A DNA stretch of 64,000 bases, taken from assembly GCA_035552275.1 (NCBI GenBank), contig DASZLR010000141.1, positions 9,186-73,185 on the forward strand. Reading direction: 5' to 3'. Shown one piece after another: positions 2,889-44,919 of this stretch. Both the position numbers and the translations under genes were made by a program. The notes under the pieces are model-generated. The model was not told the origin of the DNA. It did not search any database and saw only the letters and a list, made by a program, of their open reading frames with translations. Numbering within the stretch: the first letter of the stretch is position 1; every line of letters starts with the position of its first letter. The DNA is from Pseudonocardiaceae bacterium. GTDB taxonomy: Bacteria; Actinomycetota; Actinomycetes; Mycobacteriales; Pseudonocardiaceae.

Positions 2889-4226
2889 GTGAGATCCAGA
2901 CGGAAGCCGTTACCGCGACTGGTGGCCGCGATCGCGGCGATCGGCGCGACTGCCGGCGTCATCACCCTGGCAGCGGTCGGGTCCGCCGCAGCCAACCCGA
3001 ACACGCTGACGACGAACTACCTGTGCGGCATGCCGGTCATCACCGCCCAGACCGCGAGTGTCGTGTTCAGCGATGACGCGCCGACCATTTTCCCGCTGGG
3101 CCAGCCGACCCCGCCGATTCACCTGACCGCGAACGTGACGATGCCAGCGAACACGGACGAGGCGTTCGACCTCGTCGCCGCCGCGACCGCCCAGACCAGC
3201 GGATCGCTGCGGGTGACCATTACCGACGGCGATGAGACCATTCCCGTGTCGGTGCCGCTGACCGCGCCCGACCTTTCGCTGCCGCAAGACGGCTCGCCAT
3301 TCACCCTGCGGCTCTCCGGCGTGATCCCGTCCCAGACCCTGCGGAACGCGTTCTCCGGTGGCCGCTTCTCAACCGGCGCACTGTCGATCAACTGGGATCT
3401 TTTCCAAGCCGGCGGTGTTGAGACATCGCTGGGCAAGTTCACCTCATCCTGCTCGGTGAACCCGCCGGGCCAGGACACCACGCTGCTCACCTGGGGTCCG
3501 CAGTGCGCCGCCGCTGGCGGCGCGTGTACAAGTCCGCCCTCGAGTTCCACCACCACCAGTACCACCACGACCAGCACCACACCGGTGGTGTCCACGCCCA
3601 CGATTTACACGACGTTCCCGAGCACGGACACCACCACGTTGGAGACATCGCCGGTCAGCGACTTCACCACGACGCCCACGAGCCCCACATCAACTACGAC
3701 GGGCGAACCGATCGTCGCGCTGGGCTACGATGTCAACGGCACCAGCCATCTGAAGTCGTTGAATGCCGACATCACGGTCGGTCCGGGCACGCTCACGATC
3801 AGTCTCAATCTCCAGACGGGCGATTTCTCCGGTCCGTTGACCCTGCCGGACAACACCACCTCGTTCGACCTGTTCGGTTTCCTGCCGGGCACGGCAACCG
3901 TGCGGTTGATTCCGCAGGGTCCGGTCACGGGCGTTTTTCATCAAGGTGTGGCGACCGCGGACGCGAAGGAGACAATTCGGTTGACAAATGTGTCCGTTTT
4001 GGGCGTGCCTATCGTCAGTAACTCGACCACCTGTCAGACGGCGGCGCCATCGGACATCTCGCTGGCATCCGGTCCGAACTTCAGTGTGGTGAATGGCGGA
4101 GCCTTGACCGGCGCGTACAGTATTGGCGCGCTGACTGGCTGTGGCGGTCTCGGCCAGTTCATCAGCGCCTTCGCACAGAGTTCCGGCAACACGATCTTGG
4201 TGGCCGTCACCCCGATCGCGCCCTGA
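2889..4226 (+). CDS. Secreted two-domain protein, paralog 3 (most divergent N-domain)
   Basis: GTG start at 2889 preceded by agagggag. Signal peptide MRSRRKPLPRLVAAIAAIGATAG...AAA. Divergent N-domain, Ser/Thr/Pro linker at about 3505-3710, and a conserved C-domain (YDVNGTSHLKSL...NTILVAVTP). Confidence 0.8.
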   Translation: MRSRRKPLPRLVAAIAAIGATAGVITLAAVGSAAANPNTLTTNYLCGMPVITAQTASVVFSDDAPTIFPLGQPTPPIHLTANVTMPANTDEAFDLVAAATAQTSGSLRVTITDGDETIPVSVPLTAPDLSLPQDGSPFTLRLSGVIPSQTLRNAFSGGRFSTGALSINWDLFQAGGVETSLGKFTSSCSVNPPGQDTTLLTWGPQCAAAGGACTSPPSSSTTTSTTTTSTTPVVSTPTIYTTFPSTDTTTLETSPVSDFTTTPTSPTSTTTGEPIVALGYDVNGTSHLKSLNADITVGPGTLTISLNLQTGDFSGPLTLPDNTTSFDLFGFLPGTATVRLIPQGPVTGVFHQGVATADAKETIRLTNVSVLGVPIVSNSTTCQTAAPSDISLASGPNFSVVNGGALTGAYSIGALTGCGGLGQFISAFAQSSGNTILVAVTPIAP

Positions 4227-4302
4227 CGCACCGATCGTTCGCGGTCCGGCCTCCGGCGTTTCACCACGTCGGGGCCGGGCCACCGGATTCAGCCGACCCC
4301 GA

Positions 4303-4369
4303 CGAGTAATCGGTCAGGTGTTAGTTGGTGACCTGACTTTTGTCATTTGTGAGTGATCATTCGGGCAAT
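4303..4369 (+). terminator. Two weak hairpins downstream of paralog 3
   Basis: A 7-bp stem gtcaggt/acctgac (4303-4327) is followed by ttttgtcatt. A 9-bp stem gtgagtgat/atcactcac (4339-4366) is followed by ttt. The ttttgtcatt motif recurs after the terminators at 6150 and 8056. Confidence 0.4.
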
Positions 4370-4447
4370 CACTCACTTTCGGATAATAAGTCGTCCGGAA
4401 GTTTGGTGACAAGTTGGACACTGGCCGCAGTGGCTTCGATTCAGGTA

Positions 4448-4476
4448 TTGAGACCTGCACTACATCGCGGTAACTT
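4448..4476 (+). promoter_or_regulatory. Sigma-70-like promoter candidate for paralog 4
   Basis: TTGAGA (4448-4453), 17-nt spacer, TAACTT (4471-4476). Confidence 0.55.
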
Positions 4477-4639
4477 TGCCCGTCGGTGTAACGCCGGCGT
4501 AATGATCTTTTTGGCCATGCCCTTTTCACTGGCGCGAGGGAGCGAGTGCGAGGCTGACCGGCGGCGCGCTGCGGGGCGCGAGGGTCGCTGGTCAGATGTC
4601 GAGTTCTCGCGCCGGTGCTGATGTGTTCGGAGACAACAC

Positions 4640-6070
4640 ATGAGAGTGTCCCTGAGATCGAAGCCCGTGCTGCGGGCTTTGGCTGGTGTTGCTGCCGCCG
4701 GTGCGGTGGCGAGCGTTGTGGTGTTGGCGACCGGCGGTTCGGCCTCGGCTGCCAGCCTCTCGCTCAATTGGAATTGTCCGTTTCCGCCCCTGGCGGATCA
4801 GACGCTGGCCACCAACATTTCGGTGAATCTGCCGGCGAGTATTCCGGTGAACACGCAGACCGGGGCGATCAACGTCTCGGTCGCCGCGACGGTGCCCACG
4901 ACCGCGACCCAGGGCCTGGACCTGGTGGGCGGCGCGAGCCTGTCGGGCACGGCGTCCGCGTCGGCCACGCTCAACGAGCCGGGTGGCCAGTCGCTGAACA
5001 TCGTCATCCCGATGACCATCCCGGACACCCCGATCCCGCAGGACGGTTCGGCGTTCACCACGAACGCGAGCGGCTCGGCACCGTCGATCCAGTTCGCGAC
5101 GGCTGGTCAGGGCTCGATCATCGTGGGTGGAACGTTCACGATGAACTTGCACATCAAGAACGCCAGTGGCTCCCCCACCAGCCTGCCTGATCCGTACACC
5201 ACCAACTGCACGGCCCTCACCGGCCAGAACATGCAGTTGGCGACGTTCACGGTGACACCGGTGACGACGTCCAGCACTACGACCACGACGCCGACGACTA
5301 CCACGACGACGCCGACTACCACCACGACGACGCCGACGACTACGACGACGACGCCGACCACTACGACTACTACGACAACGACGCCGACGACGACCACCAC
5401 GACGCCGACGACAACCACCACCACGACGACGCCGACGACCACGACGACGACGCCGACCACCACGACTACCACGCCGACGACTACGACCACGACGCCGACG
5501 ACCACCACGACGACGCCCACCACCACCACGACGACGCCGACCACGAGCACCAGCAGTGGCCCGCCGAGTTCGGTGACCTACGGCGTCAGTGGTACGACGC
5601 ACGTCAAGGCGCTGGGCGCCACTGTTCCGCTCGGTCCGGGCTCGCTGGATGTCAGCATCAGCCCGACCGGCGTCACCGGCAATCTGTCCCTGCCGACCGC
5701 GACGGCCAACTTCAACCTGTTCGGGTTCATTCCTGGCACCGCGCAGGTGAAGCTGAGCTCGGCCAGCCCGACGACGATCAACCTGTCGTCCACTGGCGTC
5801 AAGACCGACACCAAGGAGAACATCCAGCTGAGCACGGTGTCGATCTTCGGCATGTCGCTGCTGTCCGCCGGGTCCACCTGCGAGACGAGCACTCCGGCCG
5901 ACATCGCGCTGTCGTCCGGACCGGGCTTCACCTTGCTGAGCGGTGGTACCTTGTCCGGCAGCTACACGATCCCGCGGCTGAGCGGATGCGGCTTCTTCGC
6001 GCCGTTCATCAACGCTTTCACCGCTGGACCGGGCAACACGATCTCCATCACGGCCACGCCGAAGGCGTGA
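4640..6070 (+). CDS. Secreted two-domain protein with (PTTTTTT)n linker, paralog 4
   Basis: ATG at 4640 preceded by gttcggagacaacac. Signal peptide MRVSLRSKPVLRALAGVAAAGAV...ASAAS, N-domain (LNWNCPFPPLADQTLATNISVNLP...), a roughly 100-aa poly-Thr/Pro linker and a divergent C-domain. Confidence 0.85.
   Translation: MRVSLRSKPVLRALAGVAAAGAVASVVVLATGGSASAASLSLNWNCPFPPLADQTLATNISVNLPASIPVNTQTGAINVSVAATVPTTATQGLDLVGGASLSGTASASATLNEPGGQSLNIVIPMTIPDTPIPQDGSAFTTNASGSAPSIQFATAGQGSIIVGGTFTMNLHIKNASGSPTSLPDPYTTNCTALTGQNMQLATFTVTPVTTSSTTTTTPTTTTTTPTTTTTTPTTTTTTPTTTTTTTTTPTTTTTTPTTTTTTTTPTTTTTTPTTTTTTPTTTTTTPTTTTTTPTTTTTTPTTSTSSGPPSSVTYGVSGTTHVKALGATVPLGPGSLDVSISPTGVTGNLSLPTATANFNLFGFIPGTAQVKLSSASPTTINLSSTGVKTDTKENIQLSTVSIFGMSLLSAGSTCETSTPADIALSSGPGFTLLSGGTLSGSYTIPRLSGCGFFAPFINAFTAGPGNTISITATPKA
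5255..5560 (+). repeat. In-frame tandem repeat of about 21 nt encoding (PTTTTTT)n
   Basis: Roughly a dozen imperfect copies of ccg acg acN acc acg acg acg are visible directly in the sequence. The antisense ORF reads as poly-Val/Gly, which is an artefact. Confidence 0.9.
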
Positions 6071-6117
6071 CGCGGGAGATGCCCTCATCGCCGTGAGGCG
6101 ACGGCCTGCTGCAACTT

Positions 6118-6154
6118 GCCCGCCCCCGGGATTCTTCCCGGGGGCGGGCTTTTG
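6118..6154 (+). terminator. Intrinsic terminator after paralog 4
   Basis: 14-bp stem gcccgcccccggga (6118-6131) / tcccgggggcgggc (6136-6149), 4-nt loop, followed by ttttg. Confidence 0.85.
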
Positions 6155-6226
6155 TCATTGCGGAACAAAAAGCACATGTTCGGTTTTAGGGCGAATTGAC
6201 AACAATAAATAAACATCTGAAAGGGG

Positions 6227-6255
6227 TTGAATGCCTGGCAACGCCACGGTAACTT
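6227..6255 (+). promoter_or_regulatory. Sigma-70-like promoter candidate for paralog 5
   Basis: TTGAAT (6227-6232), 17-nt spacer, TAACTT (6250-6255), set in an AT-rich stretch. Confidence 0.55.
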
Positions 6256-6420
6256 CAGCCTTCGTCAATGTCGTGATCCACTGGCACTGACTAGCTAGTG
6301 ACAGTAACTGAATTAATGGATTTGGTACGGGATGCGGCAACGGTTCGGGGACCGGCGCCGTCGACTCCCTGTCTGATGTCGCGTTGTCGTGCCAATGCTG
6401 CTGCGTTCGGAGACAACGAC

Positions 6421-8020: not shown

Positions 8021-8059
8021 CTCGCCCCCAGGGTTTTTCCAACCCTGGGGGCGAGTTTT
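8021..8059 (+). terminator. Intrinsic terminator after paralog 5
   Basis: 15-bp stem ctcgcccccagggtt (8021-8035) / aaccctgggggcgag (8041-8055), followed by ttttg. Confidence 0.85.
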
Positions 8060-8122
8060 GTCATTCCCCTTTGTCCTTTGCTGACAAGGATGCGCATCCA
8101 GGCGCGACTTCCGTTGCGAGCC

Positions 8123-8151
8123 TTGAGAGTTCCGGTACGGGCGAGTAACTT
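8123..8151 (+). promoter_or_regulatory. Sigma-70-like promoter candidate for paralog 6
   Basis: TTGAGA (8123-8128), 17-nt spacer, TAACTT (8146-8151). Confidence 0.55.
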
Positions 8152-8225
8152 CAGCCGCCGATATGTCTTTAGCGAACGGCAAAAACTAACAACTGATTTT
8201 CGGGGCCAAGGCGTTCGGAGACAAG

Positions 8226-38983: not shown

Positions 38984-39175
38984 TCAACGCGCCAGACCGA
39001 ATCTGTGAAGTTGGTTGACTCGGGGTTTTTGTTCCCGGTCAATGTATTTTGGCGGGATGAAGATGGGCGTGCCATTGTCCACGTCTACTTTCCAGGTGGA
39101 GTGGTGGATCAAACCATGATGGGCGCGGCACAACAGCACCAGATTGTCCAATGAGGTCGATCCGCCATCGGCCCA
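38984..39175 (-). CDS. DUF222/HNH endonuclease, exon 2 (3' part of an intron-interrupted gene)
   Basis: Reading the minus strand from 39175 gives WADGGSTSLDNLVLLCRAHHGLIHHSTWKV...GLAR followed by a stop. This is the second half of an HNH motif and is contiguous in frame with exon 1 once 39176-43878 is removed. Confidence 0.85.
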   Translation of the reverse strand, partial: WADGGSTSLDNLVLLCRAHHGLIHHSTWKVDVDNGTPIFIPPKYIDREQKPRVNQLHRFGLAR

Positions 39176-39240
39176 GTGAGGATCGGCCAGGGGCGCGGTG
39201 ACCATCTTTCGATGGTTCCGTTTCCCCTGGCCGCCCTCCC

Positions 39241-39274
<34 letters not shown>

Positions 39275-39282
39275 TCCACGAG

Positions 39283-40737
39283 TCACGCTGTGGCGGTTGT
39301 CGGTTCGTCCCACGGCGTTGGGATCTTGCTGCCCCGGTAACGGTAACGTTTGATCGTCATCGTAGTGGGTTGGTAGAGCCTGACGCCATCGTGTTCCGGA
39401 ATCGATCCGTCGTAATAGTGGCGGATGATCCACCGTTTGCTGGTGCGCGGGTGTTTGTTGTTCAGCCATCTCCAGATCCGCCACCACAGGTAGTTTTGCA
39501 GACTGTGGTAGGCGGCGCTGGACGACCCGTGCCGGAAATACTGTGACCATCCTCGGGTCATACTGTTGAGTTGCCGCAACAACTCACTCAAGGATTGGTG
39601 GGTGATCCGTTTGGTAACCGTCTTCACCTTCCGTCGAATAGCCTGTTGGGACTTCTTCGACGGGTAGGAGTAGATCAGCTTCCGGTTGCTCCCCTTCTGG
39701 GTGTGCCGCTGGATGTGGAACCCCAGAAAGTCGAAGCCCTCGTCGATATGCACAACCTGCGTTTTCTCCGGAGCCAGCCGCAACCCGACCTCGGACAGGA
39801 CGTCACCGACCTCCTCCCACTGCGCTTGCGCGTGCGCCCGAGTGCCGTTCACCAGGATCACGAAATCGTCCGCGTACCGCACCAGGCGGTACGTGGCTTT
39901 CCCGCGACGCCGATACCGCATCCGAGCGTCCGCGTTGCGGTGCGCGTTCCATCTCGCATCGAAATAATCATCGAGATGAGACAGGGCGAGATTGGCCAGC
40001 AGAGGTGAAAGAATTCCACCCTGCGGGGTCCCGGTATTGGTGTCCCGATTGAGTCCCCGCTCGTCCAGGACCCCGGCCTTCAGGAACGCCTTCACCAGGC
40101 TGATCACCCGCTTGTCGGTGGCACGTCGACGCAACCGATCCAGCAGAGCGGTATGGTCGATCTCATCGAAACACGCGGCGATATCGCCCTCGAAGACCCA
40201 CTCATACCCCTCGCGGGCGTACTTACGGATCTCTTCGATAGCGTCCTGAGCACGACGTTCCGGCCGGAACCCATAACTGGACGGACCGAAATCCGTTTCC
40301 AGGATCGGTTCCAACACCAGCTTCAAGGATGCCTGCACGACACGGTCGGCAATCGTGGGAATACCCAGGCTACGCAGTTTGCCGTTCGCCTTCGGGATCA
40401 CCGTGCGCCGTACCGGAACCGGGCGAAACGTCCGGGCCTTCAATTGCACCCGAACCTCCTCCAGGAACCCGTCCACACCGCGCTGGGAGTCTTCGATCGA
40501 CCGCGCGGTCCGCTTGTCGATCCCCGCACTCCGGGCACCCTTGTTCTCCCGAACCCGACTCCATGCCGTGACAAGGAATGCCGGGTCCGCCACGAGGTTG
40601 TACAGATCATCGAACCGACGACCGGAATCGGCCGCCGCCCAACGGTGCAGTTTCGTCTGCATCCCCAGTACCCGCCGTCTTGCCGTGTCCGGCACGGCTA
40701 GCAGGGCACCAATATTCATCGGCGCGTCTTCTGGCAT
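39283..40737 (-). CDS. Group II intron-encoded reverse transcriptase/maturase (no endonuclease domain), outer intron
   Basis: RT motifs are present (GIPTIADRVVQ, RYADDFVILV) along with the maturase X region. The protein ends RYRYRGSKIPTPW without a C-terminal HNH. I chose the ATG at 40737 (MPEDAPMNIG...) because the track start at 40812 would cross the predicted inner-intron junction. Confidence 0.85.
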   Translation of the reverse strand: MPEDAPMNIGALLAVPDTARRRVLGMQTKLHRWAAADSGRRFDDLYNLVADPAFLVTAWSRVRENKGARSAGIDKRTARSIEDSQRGVDGFLEEVRVQLKARTFRPVPVRRTVIPKANGKLRSLGIPTIADRVVQASLKLVLEPILETDFGPSSYGFRPERRAQDAIEEIRKYAREGYEWVFEGDIAACFDEIDHTALLDRLRRRATDKRVISLVKAFLKAGVLDERGLNRDTNTGTPQGGILSPLLANLALSHLDDYFDARWNAHRNADARMRYRRRGKATYRLVRYADDFVILVNGTRAHAQAQWEEVGDVLSEVGLRLAPEKTQVVHIDEGFDFLGFHIQRHTQKGSNRKLIYSYPSKKSQQAIRRKVKTVTKRITHQSLSELLRQLNSMTRGWSQYFRHGSSSAAYHSLQNYLWWRIWRWLNNKHPRTSKRWIIRHYYDGSIPEHDGVRLYQPTTMTIKRYRYRGSKIPTPWDEPTTATA

Positions 40738-40833
40738 AAACAGATCCTTCCGCTGCTGACTCGCTGTCGCCCTTCGCCATGTGGACGGCTTTGTCGGGTA
40801 GCCGGAGCGCATTGCTGCGCCCCGGCCCCCTCA

Positions 40834-40868
40834 GAACCGTGCGTGCCACTCGTCGCGGCACACGGCTC
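40834..40868 (-). ncRNA. Group II intron domain V (inner intron)
   Basis: The minus strand reads GAGCCGTGTGCCGCGACGAGTGGCACGCACGGTTC. It has an AGC triad and a basal stem GAGCCGTG/CACGGTTC, and it overlaps the IEP stop codon. Confidence 0.8.
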
Positions 40869-42669
40869 AAGCAAGCCGTGATGGCTCGCAGGCAGACAGA
40901 AATGCCGGTCCTCCGAAGCTGTCGGCATTGTGCCGACGTTTGCAGGAGGTGTGCACGAGACGGATGACCGTGTCCGACATGCCGAGTCCACTGTCGACGG
41001 TGACATGGTGCCTGCTCATCGCCTTGCGGATCACCACCATCCACCGCTCCCATTCGCGTGGGCTCTGTGGCTGGTGGTCAGCGTGCAAGAGGAGTTCACC
41101 GCAGAGTGGGCAGCGCCCATGTTGCAGCTTGAGCAGCCGCAGCCCGAACGCATCAATCGGCGGCGGCGCTCCTTTGCGTCGCCTATCGGCCCAATAGTCG
41201 GTCAGGCCCGGATCGTCTGGCGACGACGTGCCGGAGACCATCTGGTGTCGGACGATCTTCGTCCAGGCGAACTTGCGTAGATGGGCGTTGGTGTCACGGT
41301 CACCGAAGACCCATCTGTCCTGTCTGGACTTGTTGAACTGGCCGAAGTACCGGGTGACGATCCAGTGCCTCGACTTGTTCTGGTGGCCATGCTTGGCCCA
41401 CTTGTAGGCGAGCTTCCACATGTAGTCGTCCAGCGCCGTGAACGCCGTGCTGGACACCACCGTCCGGTAGTAGGCCGACCAGCCGCGCACGATCGGATCG
41501 ATCGCGTGCAGCACTGCACTGACATTGGCCCCGCGCAGGGCTTTCATTTCGGTGCGGAGCCGTTCCCGGATCCGTCTCAAGGCCGCCGGGCTCGGCTTGA
41601 TCAGCAGCTTGCCGTCGTATCGGCGGACGTTGAACCCCAAGAAGTCGAAGCCATCCTGTTCAACGTGGACGATGCGCGTCTTGTCCTCGTTGAACGCCAG
41701 ACCTCTCGGGGCCAGCCAGACGGCGAGCCGTGTCTTGACCTGTTCGGCCTCGTCGCGTGAATGACACAACGCGACCAGGTCGTCGGCATACCTGATCAGC
41801 GCCGGGCAGCCTTCCACCGACTCGGCGGCGTGCGTGCCGAGCTTGCGGTAGCGGACACCGGCGGCCTGTTCCAATCCATGCAAGGCAACGTTGAGCAACA
41901 AGGGACTGACGACTCCGCCCTGGGGAGTTCCTTCTTCGGTCGGAGTCAACCGATCACGCTCGACCACTCCCGCTTTCAGCCACTGCTCGACCAACCCTCT
42001 CGCGGGGAACGAGCCGAGCTGGGCGAGGAGGTGGTTGTGGTCGATGCGGTCGAACGCCGCTGTCAGATCCGCGTCCAACACCCACATCCGCCGAGGGTTG
42101 CGGCCCTTGAGCGTGAGATAGATGGCTGAGATCGCGTCCTGACAGCCGCGGCCGGGCCTGAAGCCGTAGGACTTCGGCTCGAACCGCGCTTCCCACTCAG
42201 GTTCCAGCGCGTTGACCACCCGCGCTTGAAGGACCCGGTCAGCGATCACCGGGATACCCAAGGGGCGCTGCTTTCCGTTGGCCTTCGGGATCAGCACTCG
42301 CTTGACCGGCCGGGGCTTCCACGACGACGAGCGATACTGCGCCCAGCGGGCCAACTCGGCCTTGGACTGCGGCAGCAACGCCGTCCTTCCATCCACCCCA
42401 GGGGTCGTGCGACCAGCGTTGATCTCCGTCACTCGGCGAACGCTCAGCAGTGTGTTCGCGCGAGATCGGAGCATCAGCTTCTGTAAGTTGCGGACCCGTT
42501 TGAGGTCCCCTGCCTGCGACGCCGTGAAGATCCTCTGCCTCAGACGCCGTACGTCGTCCTCGAGGGCCCGCCAGTCGATCGCTTGCCAGTCAAGGATTCT
42601 GTCCTCTGGTCCGTTCACCACCGTTGTGGTGGTGTCCAACTTGTCCGTCGGTTCTGGTGTCATCCTCAT
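40867..42669 (-). CDS. Group II intron-encoded reverse transcriptase/maturase with a C-terminal HNH endonuclease domain, inner intron
   Basis: 600 aa. The N-terminus DWQAIDWRALEDDVRRLRQRIF is typical of IEPs. RT motifs GIPVIADRVLQ and IRYADDLVAL are present, as is an X domain. The C-terminal CPLCGELLL...HHV...VHTSCKRRH is an En domain. Confidence 0.9.
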   Translation of the reverse strand: MRMTPEPTDKLDTTTTVVNGPEDRILDWQAIDWRALEDDVRRLRQRIFTASQAGDLKRVRNLQKLMLRSRANTLLSVRRVTEINAGRTTPGVDGRTALLPQSKAELARWAQYRSSSWKPRPVKRVLIPKANGKQRPLGIPVIADRVLQARVVNALEPEWEARFEPKSYGFRPGRGCQDAISAIYLTLKGRNPRRMWVLDADLTAAFDRIDHNHLLAQLGSFPARGLVEQWLKAGVVERDRLTPTEEGTPQGGVVSPLLLNVALHGLEQAAGVRYRKLGTHAAESVEGCPALIRYADDLVALCHSRDEAEQVKTRLAVWLAPRGLAFNEDKTRIVHVEQDGFDFLGFNVRRYDGKLLIKPSPAALRRIRERLRTEMKALRGANVSAVLHAIDPIVRGWSAYYRTVVSSTAFTALDDYMWKLAYKWAKHGHQNKSRHWIVTRYFGQFNKSRQDRWVFGDRDTNAHLRKFAWTKIVRHQMVSGTSSPDDPGLTDYWADRRRKGAPPPIDAFGLRLLKLQHGRCPLCGELLLHADHQPQSPREWERWMVVIRKAMSRHHVTVDSGLGMSDTVIRLVHTSCKRRHNADSFGGPAFLSACEPSRLA

Positions 42670-43878
42670 CGTTTCTTCACGAGCTCACCTGGCCCACGTC
42701 AGCACCCTTTCGGGTCCGGGTATCGACCCGGTATCCGGCCAGTTATCCGAAGCGACCGGCGAAGGAACTGGTTATGCTGCCTCGGTTTCCTGCTTCCTTT
42801 CGGCGACCGGCATTGGCTTCTTGGGCCATCCTGCGTCCGCTGGAGGATCGGGCCTTCCTCACGGTCGGCTTGCCGGAAACATCGTTGTTCCCGGACTCCA
42901 ACGGAGTTGTCACGTTCCGCACGAGCGAGATCCGACCGGGGTGGGTGCCCCCTATACCCCGAGGACGACGGTGTTCTCCCGACCAGCATAGGGTCTTCCG
43001 GTCGGCGTCTGCCGCTTTTCAGCGGCCAGTCCTTGACCCTGCTGCAACATCCCATCGGCGGGGTTTCCGATGACGAGGCATCATCAGGGGTTCACTCGCG
43101 TTCACCCGTCCGGTCTTCCCCGTGACCTGTGACTCCCGGATGGAACGGGAGTCCTTGGGTCTGTTCACCTGAGCTTCGAACCCCGCCGTTACCAGCGACG
43201 CACGTCAGGCCGGGGACAGATCCACGAACACCGACCTGGAACTACACCTTCGACATCAGTCGAACCTCCAAAATGCGTTCACTCAACTCGTGCGACCTCG
43301 TGTCGCACCCCGCCCTCGGACTACTACGGCGACTCCGCCCCACTCCGAGACCATCGATGGGCAATGGCATCTACCCGCCGCACCACCGGCCGTGGCGCGA
43401 GTAGGGAGTCCCGAACTGGTTCCCGTGTTCACGTGATTCCGATCGATGGAGGAGGCATCCAGCTTTACCCCGACGGCTCCCCGCGAGTACGCCACAGACA
43501 TTCCCCGCAGGCTGCCCGAACCCACCAACCCGATTCGGACGGGCGCTACACCTACCATTCGGTTCACGCGCACCGCTTACCGACCCACATGCACCGCCAG
43601 CCAAAACTTACCGTGACGGTGACATCCATCCACCAGGTTCGAGTCGGTTCCACTTAACGAGGCCTCAGACACTGGTTTCTCGCGTATACCTTTCCATCTC
43701 GCTCACCGAGCCCGCCTCATCTGGCAGTGCTGACACGACTCGACTTTGTCAGGGCCGCTTGCCACCCAACCCACCATTCCCACGGGTCAGGCTGCCCTCA
43801 GCTTCACCGAACCGCTGTGACGATTCGGCGGCAGAGTCCTTTCACCTCCGCTCGGAAATCACGCGCCTCACGGCGCAC

Positions 43879-44919
43879 GTGCACACGGTGGTGCGCGTTT
43901 GTCCATTGTGGAGGACGATCGCAGCTCGGAAACGCGCATCCTCGGTCCCGGAACACCAACGCCTTCCGGATCGCGGTCGGGATCGTGCGGCTGCTCCGAC
44001 CGACATCGAGGGGTTCGGAGCGGGACCCGAGCACCATGGGCAGGATGCGCGCATCGCAGGCGATCCGCCGGGCCTGGGAGGCTTTCAGGCTCAGTCCGCC
44101 TTCCAGGGTGGCGGTGTGCAGGGTTGCGCCGGCGACTTGGTCGCGTAGCACGTCCCAGGGCAGGGTGACGGTGAGGTGCGGTTTCTGGCCGCCGTCCTCG
44201 GGGAGTTCGCCGGAGTCGGTGACGAGTTTGAAGACATCGGCCAGGGCGTCGCCGTGGCGCTCGGCGAGCGTGCGGCGGTCCGGCCGACCCTCGTCGCCGC
44301 GCGGTGTGGACAGTGCGGACAGGGTTCCGGTGAACAGGGCCCCGGTTTCGGGTTCCAGATCACAGATCGCGACGACCCGTCCGGATTTCTTCACGGTGTA
44401 GCGGACTTCGTTGCGCGGTGTGGCGAGCTCGTCTTCGTGCGGCGCCGATCCGTCCTGGTCCTCGCGGGCGAGGATCTCACGGCCCAGCCGCCGCACGATC
44501 AACGGATCCAACTGGTGGGCGGCCTGCACCAGAATCCGCTGCGTCGACTCGTACAACTCGGGGGCCAGGGGTGGGAGTTTGGCGAGGGTGTCCACGATGA
44601 CCGTGATGTGCTCGGGGTGTAGCACCCCGGCATCAGCGGCCGCCCCCATGATCGACCACTTCTCGAGTTGTCCGGCCCGCTGCACCCGGCGCTTCGCGTC
44701 GGCGGTGGTGATCGCCAACCGGTCGTGCAGCAACGCCGCGGTGTCCCGATGCCCCCAGTCGCGGGCCACACCACGGCGGTCCAACTCGCCGATGGCGCGC
44801 AGCATCCGCGCGTGTCGCAGCCGATCCTCACGCTCCAACTCGGCGATCTGATCGAGCAACTCCTCATCACCGCAACGCCACCATCCGGCGTCCGGCGCGT
44901 CTTCCCGTTGAGTGCTCAT
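43879..44919 (-). CDS. DUF222/HNH endonuclease (13E12-repeat-family-like), exon 1
   Basis: The N-terminus MSTQREDAPDAGWWRCGDEELLDQIAELER... has DUF222-like character. The exon ends ...CAFPSCDRPPQWTNAHHRVH at 43879. The track ORF continues into the intron for 24 codons and then stops. Confidence 0.85.

Follow-up and report, generated by a model that had tools for sequence, protein, structure and literature searches.

Nested group II introns in an actinobacterial DUF222/HNH nuclease gene and the probable repeated homing of the inner lineage into a domain IV hairpin of the outer intron

What kind of element splits a DUF222/HNH nuclease gene of the Pseudonocardiaceae bacterium assembly GCA_035552275.1, where a single insert carries two intron-encoded proteins and two domain V hairpins? 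The window, which is the whole 64,000-nucleotide (nt) stretch analyzed here (contig DASZLR010000141.1, positions 9,186 to 73,185), contains this gene on its minus strand, as it does all of the features of the insert, and the gene is interrupted within its HNH motif over 4703 nt (43878..39176). The initial annotation proposed a twintron, in which an inner group II intron (43308-40793, about 2516 nt) lies inside an outer one (43878-43309 plus 40792-39176, about 2187 nt). Our analyses make it very probable that the insert in this actinobacterial gene represents a real twintron with two levels, and that its inner lineage homes repeatedly into the domain IV hairpin of the outer intron. The proposed coordinates proved exact when the ends were read directly from the sequence: the outer intron begins with GTGCGCC at 43878 and ends with ...CCTCAC at 39176, while the inner intron begins with GTGCGAC at 43308 and ends with ...CTACCCGAC at 40793. 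Each intron, like the host gene, was found only once within the 64-kb window.

Solo relatives of both introns define the same boundaries as those predicted. When its two segments were joined in silico, the outer intron measured 2187 nt. Ten uninterrupted relatives, 2112-2165 nt long and found in Actinophytocola, Amycolatopsis, Mycobacterium, Kutzneria, Streptomyces and others, each matched it in a single blastn high-scoring segment pair (HSP) that begins at position 1 and reaches 2143-2187. The HSPs of the solo relatives run unbroken across outer position 570/571. Of 80 relatives, 79 retain the 37-nt junction (CCGTAGTAGTCCGAGGGCGGG/AAAGCCGTCCACATGG, where the slash, here and in sequences below, marks the dividing point) without interruption, and in L013 and L014 its sequence is identical. 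The nesting is thus borne out by the collinearity of the joined outer intron with its solo relatives. The inner intron is delimited in the same manner by more than 50 relatives that align end to end, starting with GTGCGACA and ending with CTACCCGAC in many unrelated flanks. It aligns over its full length at 72-83% identity with L082-L086, L092, L123 and L172-L174, and is ~70-78% identical to more than 40 non-nested relatives that have the same ends and are located in transposase genes and other sites. An alternative inner 5' end, GTGCGCG at about 43572, was rejected, as this motif is a conserved part of outer domain I and is present in solo relatives too. It adjoins an insertion of ~38 nt that is specific to the window (43569..43606, minus strand); none of the eight relatives aligned with it has this insertion (alignment A2, columns 276-313).

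The boundaries of the outer intron are fixed by protein logic, namely the restored HNH motif, together with a conserved homing site. The exon 1 open reading frame (ORF), 44919..43879, ends with ...TNAHHRVH, and the frame resumes past 39176 with WADGGSTSLDNLVLLCRAHH... and continues to a stop at 38984. The joined exons encode a 410-amino-acid (aa) product with both DUF222 and HNH; the HNH domain spans the junction, and only the joined protein passes the Pfam threshold for it (26.7 bits, cutoff 21.4). The outer intron is inserted in the codons of the HNH motif, at HHxxH/WxxGG, and its closest relatives (L001, L003, L004, L005 and L035) split the same position in other DUF222/HNH genes. In two other twintrons, the outer intron is located outside an HNH gene, after ...DPFHVVK (L082:2829) and ...SRTYYDKK (L092:1818); these motifs look like transposase motifs and point to putative host genes of that type.

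Both ribozymes and both ORFs look intact. The two domain V hairpins that had been noted, one per intron, correspond to two matches of the Rfam domain V/VI family RF00029 (39176-39276, 61.1 bits; 40793-40870, 52.1 bits), both above the gathering score of 40, and a match to RF02012 (D1-D4) falls in domain I of the inner intron at 43151-43239. The outer intron without the inner one folds into a consensus structure: RNAalifold, applied to nine sequences, predicted 176 base pairs (bp), 81 of which show compensatory changes, and the termini, GUGCGCC and ...CUCAC, fit the GUGYG/AY rule. For the 5' region of the inner intron, seven relatives yielded 193 predicted pairs with 49 compensatory ones, and domains I, II and III close at alignment columns 7-409, 415-487 and 489-646, respectively. 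The inner termini are GUGCGAC and CCCGAC, and inspection places the bulged A of domain VI 7 nt from the 3' end (CUA/CCCGAC). The two ORFs (600 aa and 484 aa) are full length and retain the YADD motif, in keeping with the initial annotation, and both proteins exceed the 300-bit cutoff of the NCBIfam group II reverse transcriptase (RT)/maturase model TIGR04416 (inner, 326.7 bits; outer, 394.7 bits). The ratios of nonsynonymous to synonymous substitution (dN/dS), 0.15-0.19 for the inner protein and 0.15-0.25 for the outer protein, indicate that purifying selection acts on both. The distance from the inner insertion point to the outer ATG at 40737 is 55 nt, as estimated beforehand. A mechanical ORF call for the outer protein reaches an upstream ATG at 40812, inside the inner intron (509 aa; the added part is 40738..40812, minus strand), while the start backed by homologues is 40737 (MPEDAPMN), with GGAAGGA just before it. 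The features of the locus are collected in Table 1.

Table 1. Parts of the twintron and its host gene, listed in the direction of transcription
Feature	Position in the window	Strand	Evidence
Host gene exon 1: DUF222 and first half of the HNH motif (...TNAHHRVH)	43879..44919	-	ORF; Pfam DUF222, E=1.2e-32
Outer intron 5' segment, 570 nt: GUGCG end, domains I-III, 5' strand of the domain IV basal hairpin (43333..43309)	43309..43878	-	Alignment with solo relatives; consensus fold; hairpin covariation
Inner intron, 2516 nt, complete, chloroplast-like/IIB type	40793..43308	-	Relatives aligned end to end; consensus fold
Inner exon-binding site 2 (EBS2; UCGGA)	43066..43070	-	Covariation with exons; pairs with UCCGA at -12..-8 of the 5' flank
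Inner exon-binding site 1 (EBS1) loop (AAGACCCUAUG)	42987..42997	-	Covariation with intron-binding site 1 (IBS1) in 47 non-nested relatives
Inner protein, 600 aa: RVT_N, RVT_1 (RT, YADD), GIIM (maturase), then a C-terminal Cys/His domain at the endonuclease (En) position	40867..42669	-	Pfam; TIGR04416; PDB match
Inner domains V and VI, 3' end ...CUACCCGAC	40793..40870	-	RF00029, 52.1 bits
Outer intron 3' segment, 1617 nt: 3' strand of the domain IV hairpin (40792..40766), protein ORF, domains V and VI	39176..40792	-	Contiguous with the 5' segment in solo relatives; RF00029
Outer protein, 484 aa: RVT_1 (RT, YADD) and GIIM (maturase), no endonuclease domain	39283..40737	-	Pfam; TIGR04416; 77% identity to the protein of the solo intron L001
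Host gene exon 2: second half of the HNH motif (WADGGSTSLDNLVLLCRAHH...) to the stop	38984..39175	-	Pfam HNH across the junction of the joined protein

Are the two introns related to each other? The best PDB match of the inner protein is the protein of the Thermosynechococcus elongatus intron TeI4h (E=1.5e-104; profile 8.8e-127; 39% identity by Foldseek), and because of this closeness we call the inner intron chloroplast-like/IIB type. The outer protein scores alike against TeI4h (4.6e-60) and GsI-IIC (3.4e-53), and the intron that encodes it belongs to a large actinobacterial family. The inner and outer proteins are ~37% identical, and the two introns are, as judged from their proteins, different lineages, each with a protein of its own. 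The initial annotation had further described the inner intron as endonuclease-containing, with an HNH domain, and the outer one as endonuclease-less. The second half of this description stands, since the Pfam scan found nothing past GIIM in the outer protein, which stops right after the maturase domain as had been stated. The HNH label of the inner protein was not verified: its C-terminus gave no Pfam HNH match even at E<=10 and no PDB sequence match with either phmmer or a profile. The C-terminal 80 aa contain conserved C520, C523, H573 and C576, along with D531/H532, in the pattern CxxC...H-x-D-H...HxxC. Their position corresponds to that of the En domain in TeI4h, and a profile alignment with this protein extends no further than the first CxxC. 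The AlphaFold2 (AF2) model has low confidence (predicted local distance difference test, pLDDT, 58), and Foldseek returned only RT matches. The conserved residues suggest a candidate divergent zinc-binding En-like domain, and the endonuclease-containing label is plausible.

The insertion site itself is a structured element of the outer intron. At the base of outer domain IV there is a hairpin of three helices with GAAAG as its terminal loop. The inner intron is inserted in this loop, between the G and the A, and thereby splits the hairpin into 43333..43309 and 40792..40766 (minus strand). The target around the insertion reads GGNCGGG/AAAGCC, and its empty form is GGNCGGG/AAAGCCGN'CC. Among 66 distinct sequences, 99% of the cells of the hairpin are paired, and compensatory changes occur in 11 of its 16 pairs; the covariation score is 0.472, whereas shuffled alignments give 0.127 (none of 500 reaches the score) and slid controls no more than 0.147. 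Loops and bulges hardly vary among introns whose proteins are only ~55% identical. From this position and conservation, we infer that the basal domain IV hairpin is a putative DIVa-type binding element for the outer protein.

Is the insertion at this loop a single event? An inner-type intron occupies exactly the same loop position in 12 independent loci from Streptomyces, Kitasatospora, Nonomuraea and metagenomes. They include the metagenome loci L082/83, L092, L093, L108 and L123; L084 (Streptomyces sp.) and L085 (Nonomuraea); and further L086-88 (S. chiangmaiensis and related assemblies), L172 (Kitasatospora), L173 (Streptomyces sp. ISL-86) and L174 (S. umbrinus). In L086-88, L123, L173 and L174, both ORFs are again intact. 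The nested copies form one clade in the inner-protein tree, in which all members of at least 79% identity with readable flanks are nested. In the outer-protein tree, by comparison, the hosts of the three complete twintrons (the window, L086 and L123) fall into three subclades; their outer proteins are 57-60% identical to one another and 72-78% identical to those of solo relatives. The presence of one inner clade in differing outer subclades therefore indicates repeated homing. In the same pairs, the inner protein also shows less synonymous divergence than the outer one (0.83 versus 1.45; 1.3 versus 2.3). The simplest reading of these results is that one inner lineage homed repeatedly, and at a specific site, into outer introns that had diverged beforehand; the same argument was made for the twintrons of T. 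elongatus (PMC2882425). The inner intron thus appears to be a parasite specialized on the outer intron.

How would the inner intron recognize such a target? We located EBS1 and EBS2 from 47 dereplicated non-nested inner relatives, by covariation with the exons and with shuffling controls. EBS1 lies in a terminal loop of ~10-11 nt, and EBS2 consists of the 5 nt that follow a conserved hairpin. In the 47 non-nested relatives, EBS1-IBS1 pairing comprises on average 5.02 contiguous bp, compared with 2.46 after shuffling (maximum 3.09), and EBS2 pairing with intron-binding site 2 (IBS2) averages 4.45 bp across the inner family, compared with 3.19. In the nested copies, the EBS2 sequence UCGGA faces UCCGA at -12..-8, forming 5 bp in six of the seven copies analyzed and 4 bp in L086. 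Two other candidates were rejected. The heptamer CCCCGCC at inner nt ~247, considered as EBS1, is a perfect complement of GGCGGG, but it stays unchanged in relatives whose exons differ and forms part of a predicted stem, and the conserved UGCCUCG hairpin loop, considered as EBS2, shows no variation with the exons, the true EBS2 being the 5 nt that follow it.

Several points weigh against the repeated homing of an active inner intron. First, the EBS1-IBS1 pairing of all nested copies is limited to 2-4 bp (in the window 3 bp, between CCC and the GGG that closes the 5' flank), compared with ~5 bp in the non-nested relatives, and a search for an alternative pairing register of the nested EBS1 loops found none that was consistent. 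With so weak a pairing, efficient splicing or retrohoming of the inner intron is not assured. Second, the synonymous divergences given above are near saturation, which renders the argument for a younger inner lineage only semi-quantitative. Third, solo outer introns could also derive from twintrons whose inner intron has spliced out, which would blur the argument from the trees. In addition, an active HNH endonuclease in the inner C-terminus was not demonstrated by Pfam, PDB, AF2 or Foldseek; no loop with convincing covariation emerged when alignment A2 was inspected for the outer EBS sites; and the order and activity of splicing are predictions from the sequence.

With these reservations, the following course of events can be proposed for repeated homing. 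The inner lineage would retrohome specifically into the domain IV hairpin of the outer intron, recognizing its target through EBS2 (UCGGA with UCCGA) and a short EBS1 match (CCC with GGG), probably assisted by its own protein. After transcription, the inner intron would be spliced first, restoring the hairpin, and the outer intron would follow, restoring the HNH reading frame. Since large inserts are tolerated in domain IV, another possibility is that folding and splicing of the outer intron take place while it still contains the inner one. A 16-bp hairpin supplies both flanks of the inner intron, one strand on each side, and we hypothesize that the 5' exon is tethered to the 3' exon in this way, so that strong EBS1-IBS1 pairing is perhaps dispensable.

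A more far-reaching version, which we put forward tentatively, is that a dedicated hyperparasitic chloroplast-like lineage homes into the conserved protein-binding hairpin loop in domain IV of an unrelated endonuclease-less family across Actinobacteria. The pairing of exon with exon may then partly replace the EBS1-IBS1 tether, and EBS1 would for this reason be degenerate in all nested copies; the splicing of the inner intron would, moreover, control the formation of the protein-binding site of the outer one.

Other explanations of the locus can be weighed against repeated homing. The first assumes a single ancient insertion, after which the composite spread as a unit by means of the outer machinery, with the inner intron as a passenger that no longer homes alone. 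The weak EBS1 match of the nested copies is compatible with a relaxation of selection for the independent recognition of targets, inner and outer divergence stand in a roughly constant ratio from pair to pair, and for the T. elongatus twintrons, movement of the composite intron has been suggested as one of the possible routes (PMC2882425). However, the outer protein of each complete twintron is closer to solo relatives than to other twintron outer proteins, and the inner synonymous divergence is clearly below the outer one in the same pairs. The inner protein is, moreover, apparently under purifying selection, and EBS2 is perfectly matched to the site in nearly all nested copies. We consider this explanation unlikely.

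Another possibility, to which we assign a still lower probability, is that the locus is a decaying fossil, in which the inner insertion broke the protein-binding hairpin of the outer intron, neither intron splices efficiently, and the DUF222/HNH gene is in effect a pseudogene. Such decay would be in line with the mere 3 bp of EBS1-IBS1 pairing in the window and with the membership of the host gene in a multi-copy, probably dispensable family (DUF222), and a review states that bacterial twintrons usually lie outside housekeeping genes (PMC4424553). Against it, both ORFs have kept their full length, their YADD motifs and their low dN/dS, domains V/VI of both introns score above the Rfam threshold, the exons are still in frame and give an intact HNH motif, and several other nested loci have kept both ORFs intact as well.

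Finally, two adjacent or tandem introns, or an assembly chimera of two repeated elements, were tested and rejected as having a negligible probability: although both families are repeats that are often assembled as separate short contigs (many loci of 2.1-2.2 kb), and the outer family does form tandem and nested arrays (L086), the segment 40792-39176 alone would be without domains I-III, the outer halves join exactly, the same nested junctions occur in isolate-genome contigs of Streptomyces (10.4 Mb) and Nonomuraea (1.1 Mb), and a metagenome contig (L081), which may share its source with the window, is 100% identical to the window twintron over all 4703 nt.

How does the twintron compare with those already described? 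There is a precedent for homing into domain IV of another intron in T. elongatus, where TeI3 introns of family F3 reside inside TeI4 introns of family F1 (Mohr, Ghanem & Lambowitz 2010, PMC2882425). As in the window, the inner introns occupy one conserved site in outer domain IV, next to the start of the outer ORF, and the insertion is repeated in several diverged outer copies, which was read as retrohoming into another mobile intron; the inner protein of the window is, in addition, most similar to that of TeI4h. On the other hand, the T. elongatus inner introns lack ORFs, share an ancestor with the outer introns and are mobilized by the outer protein, whereas the window combines two lineages with proteins of their own. 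The T. elongatus site lies between the first two ATGs of the ORF rather than in a hairpin terminal loop upstream of the ATG, and that arrangement is confined to one genome, while the type found in the window spans several actinobacterial genera.

In the Trichodesmium erythraeum twintron, sequential splicing was shown experimentally, and its authors described it as the only known arrangement of such a kind to interrupt a bacterial protein-coding gene (Pfreundt & Hess 2015, PMC4649490). It is likewise bacterial and ~5 kb long, with ORFs in both introns, and it interrupts a protein-coding gene, and it can therefore serve as a model for the splicing that we propose for the window. Its inner intron, however, lies in domain I of the host intron and has no known homologue in other bacteria, unlike the hairpin-loop insertion of the window, which recurs across genera and whose splicing is a prediction. 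Wolbachia, too, has twintrons (PMC8919778). Because the outer intron of a twintron escapes annotation pipelines (PMC8919778), such loci are probably under-annotated.

Bacterial twintrons have been described as rare and usually located outside protein-coding genes (PMC4649490, PMC4424553). Our literature search found no description of an actinobacterial twintron and nothing relevant on group II introns in DUF222/REP13E12 genes. As twintrons have already been reported from bacteria and archaea, with insertions in domain IV among them, the novelty of the window case is modest. Its distinguishing features are the two unrelated lineages, each with its own ORF, the hairpin-loop target, the recurrence across genera and the interruption of the catalytic motif of an otherwise intact gene. 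The weak EBS1 match, combined with the apparent specialization on the domain IV hairpin, is worth following. The locus offers a natural system for asking how one retroelement comes to target a conserved functional RNA/DNA element of another, how nested ribozymes fold and splice in order, and how much EBS1-IBS1 pairing is needed when the exons are held together by other means.

The nested group II introns of the archaeon Methanosarcina acetivorans (Dai & Zimmerly 2003, as summarized in PMC4424553) also show, according to that summary, site-specific homing into other group II introns and multi-level nests. They differ, as described there, in comprising up to five nested introns with no coding exons flanking the nest, whereas the twintron of the window interrupts an otherwise intact protein-coding gene. 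Two of our loci invite comparison with these nests. In S. chiangmaiensis (JBHTFT010000001.1), L086:1130-8160 is a nest of three levels. The 5' fragment of an outer-type host (GTGCGCCGTGAGGCGCAG...) holds a complete solo outer-type intron at host position ~18 (L086:1148-3290) and a full twintron at host position ~42 (outer intron from 3315, inner intron 3849-6391), and the host fragment resumes at ~8030-8156. The outer family therefore also homes into itself. The Kitasatospora sp. locus (JBHXDN010000139.1) carries, besides the inner intron in the hairpin loop (L172:74-2614), a second inner-family intron with 71% identity at L172:3679, within the outer protein ORF after ...GAGGGGTTCGATTTTCTCG (the GFDFLG RT motif). 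This insertion resembles the homing into intron ORFs that has been described for Methanosarcina.

A further inner-family intron, from a different subclade, was observed in a metagenome-assembled genome of Actinomycetota (JALYZO010000188.1). It is inserted in domain I of an outer-type intron, at outer position ~196 (L027:69-2494, with the outer intron at 2811 onward), and the domain IV hairpin site of the same outer intron is empty (L027:2823).

The inner family extends well beyond the nested clade. Its non-nested members among the loci L089-L171 are mostly located in conserved coding motifs, apparently of transposase genes, with flanks such as ...GGCCAGTAC/TGG..., ...AAAAAGAAG/GAAC..., ...CAGGCCGAG/CGG... 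and ...CGCTGGG/A...; other mobile elements thus seem to be the targets of the whole family. Across loci L089-L171, the first and penultimate intron nucleotides covary, from G1/A in the GTGCGACA...CTACCCGAC group to U1/G in the TTGCGACA...CTACCCGGC group. An interaction between the first and penultimate nucleotides of the intron is known, and the covariation is consistent with it.

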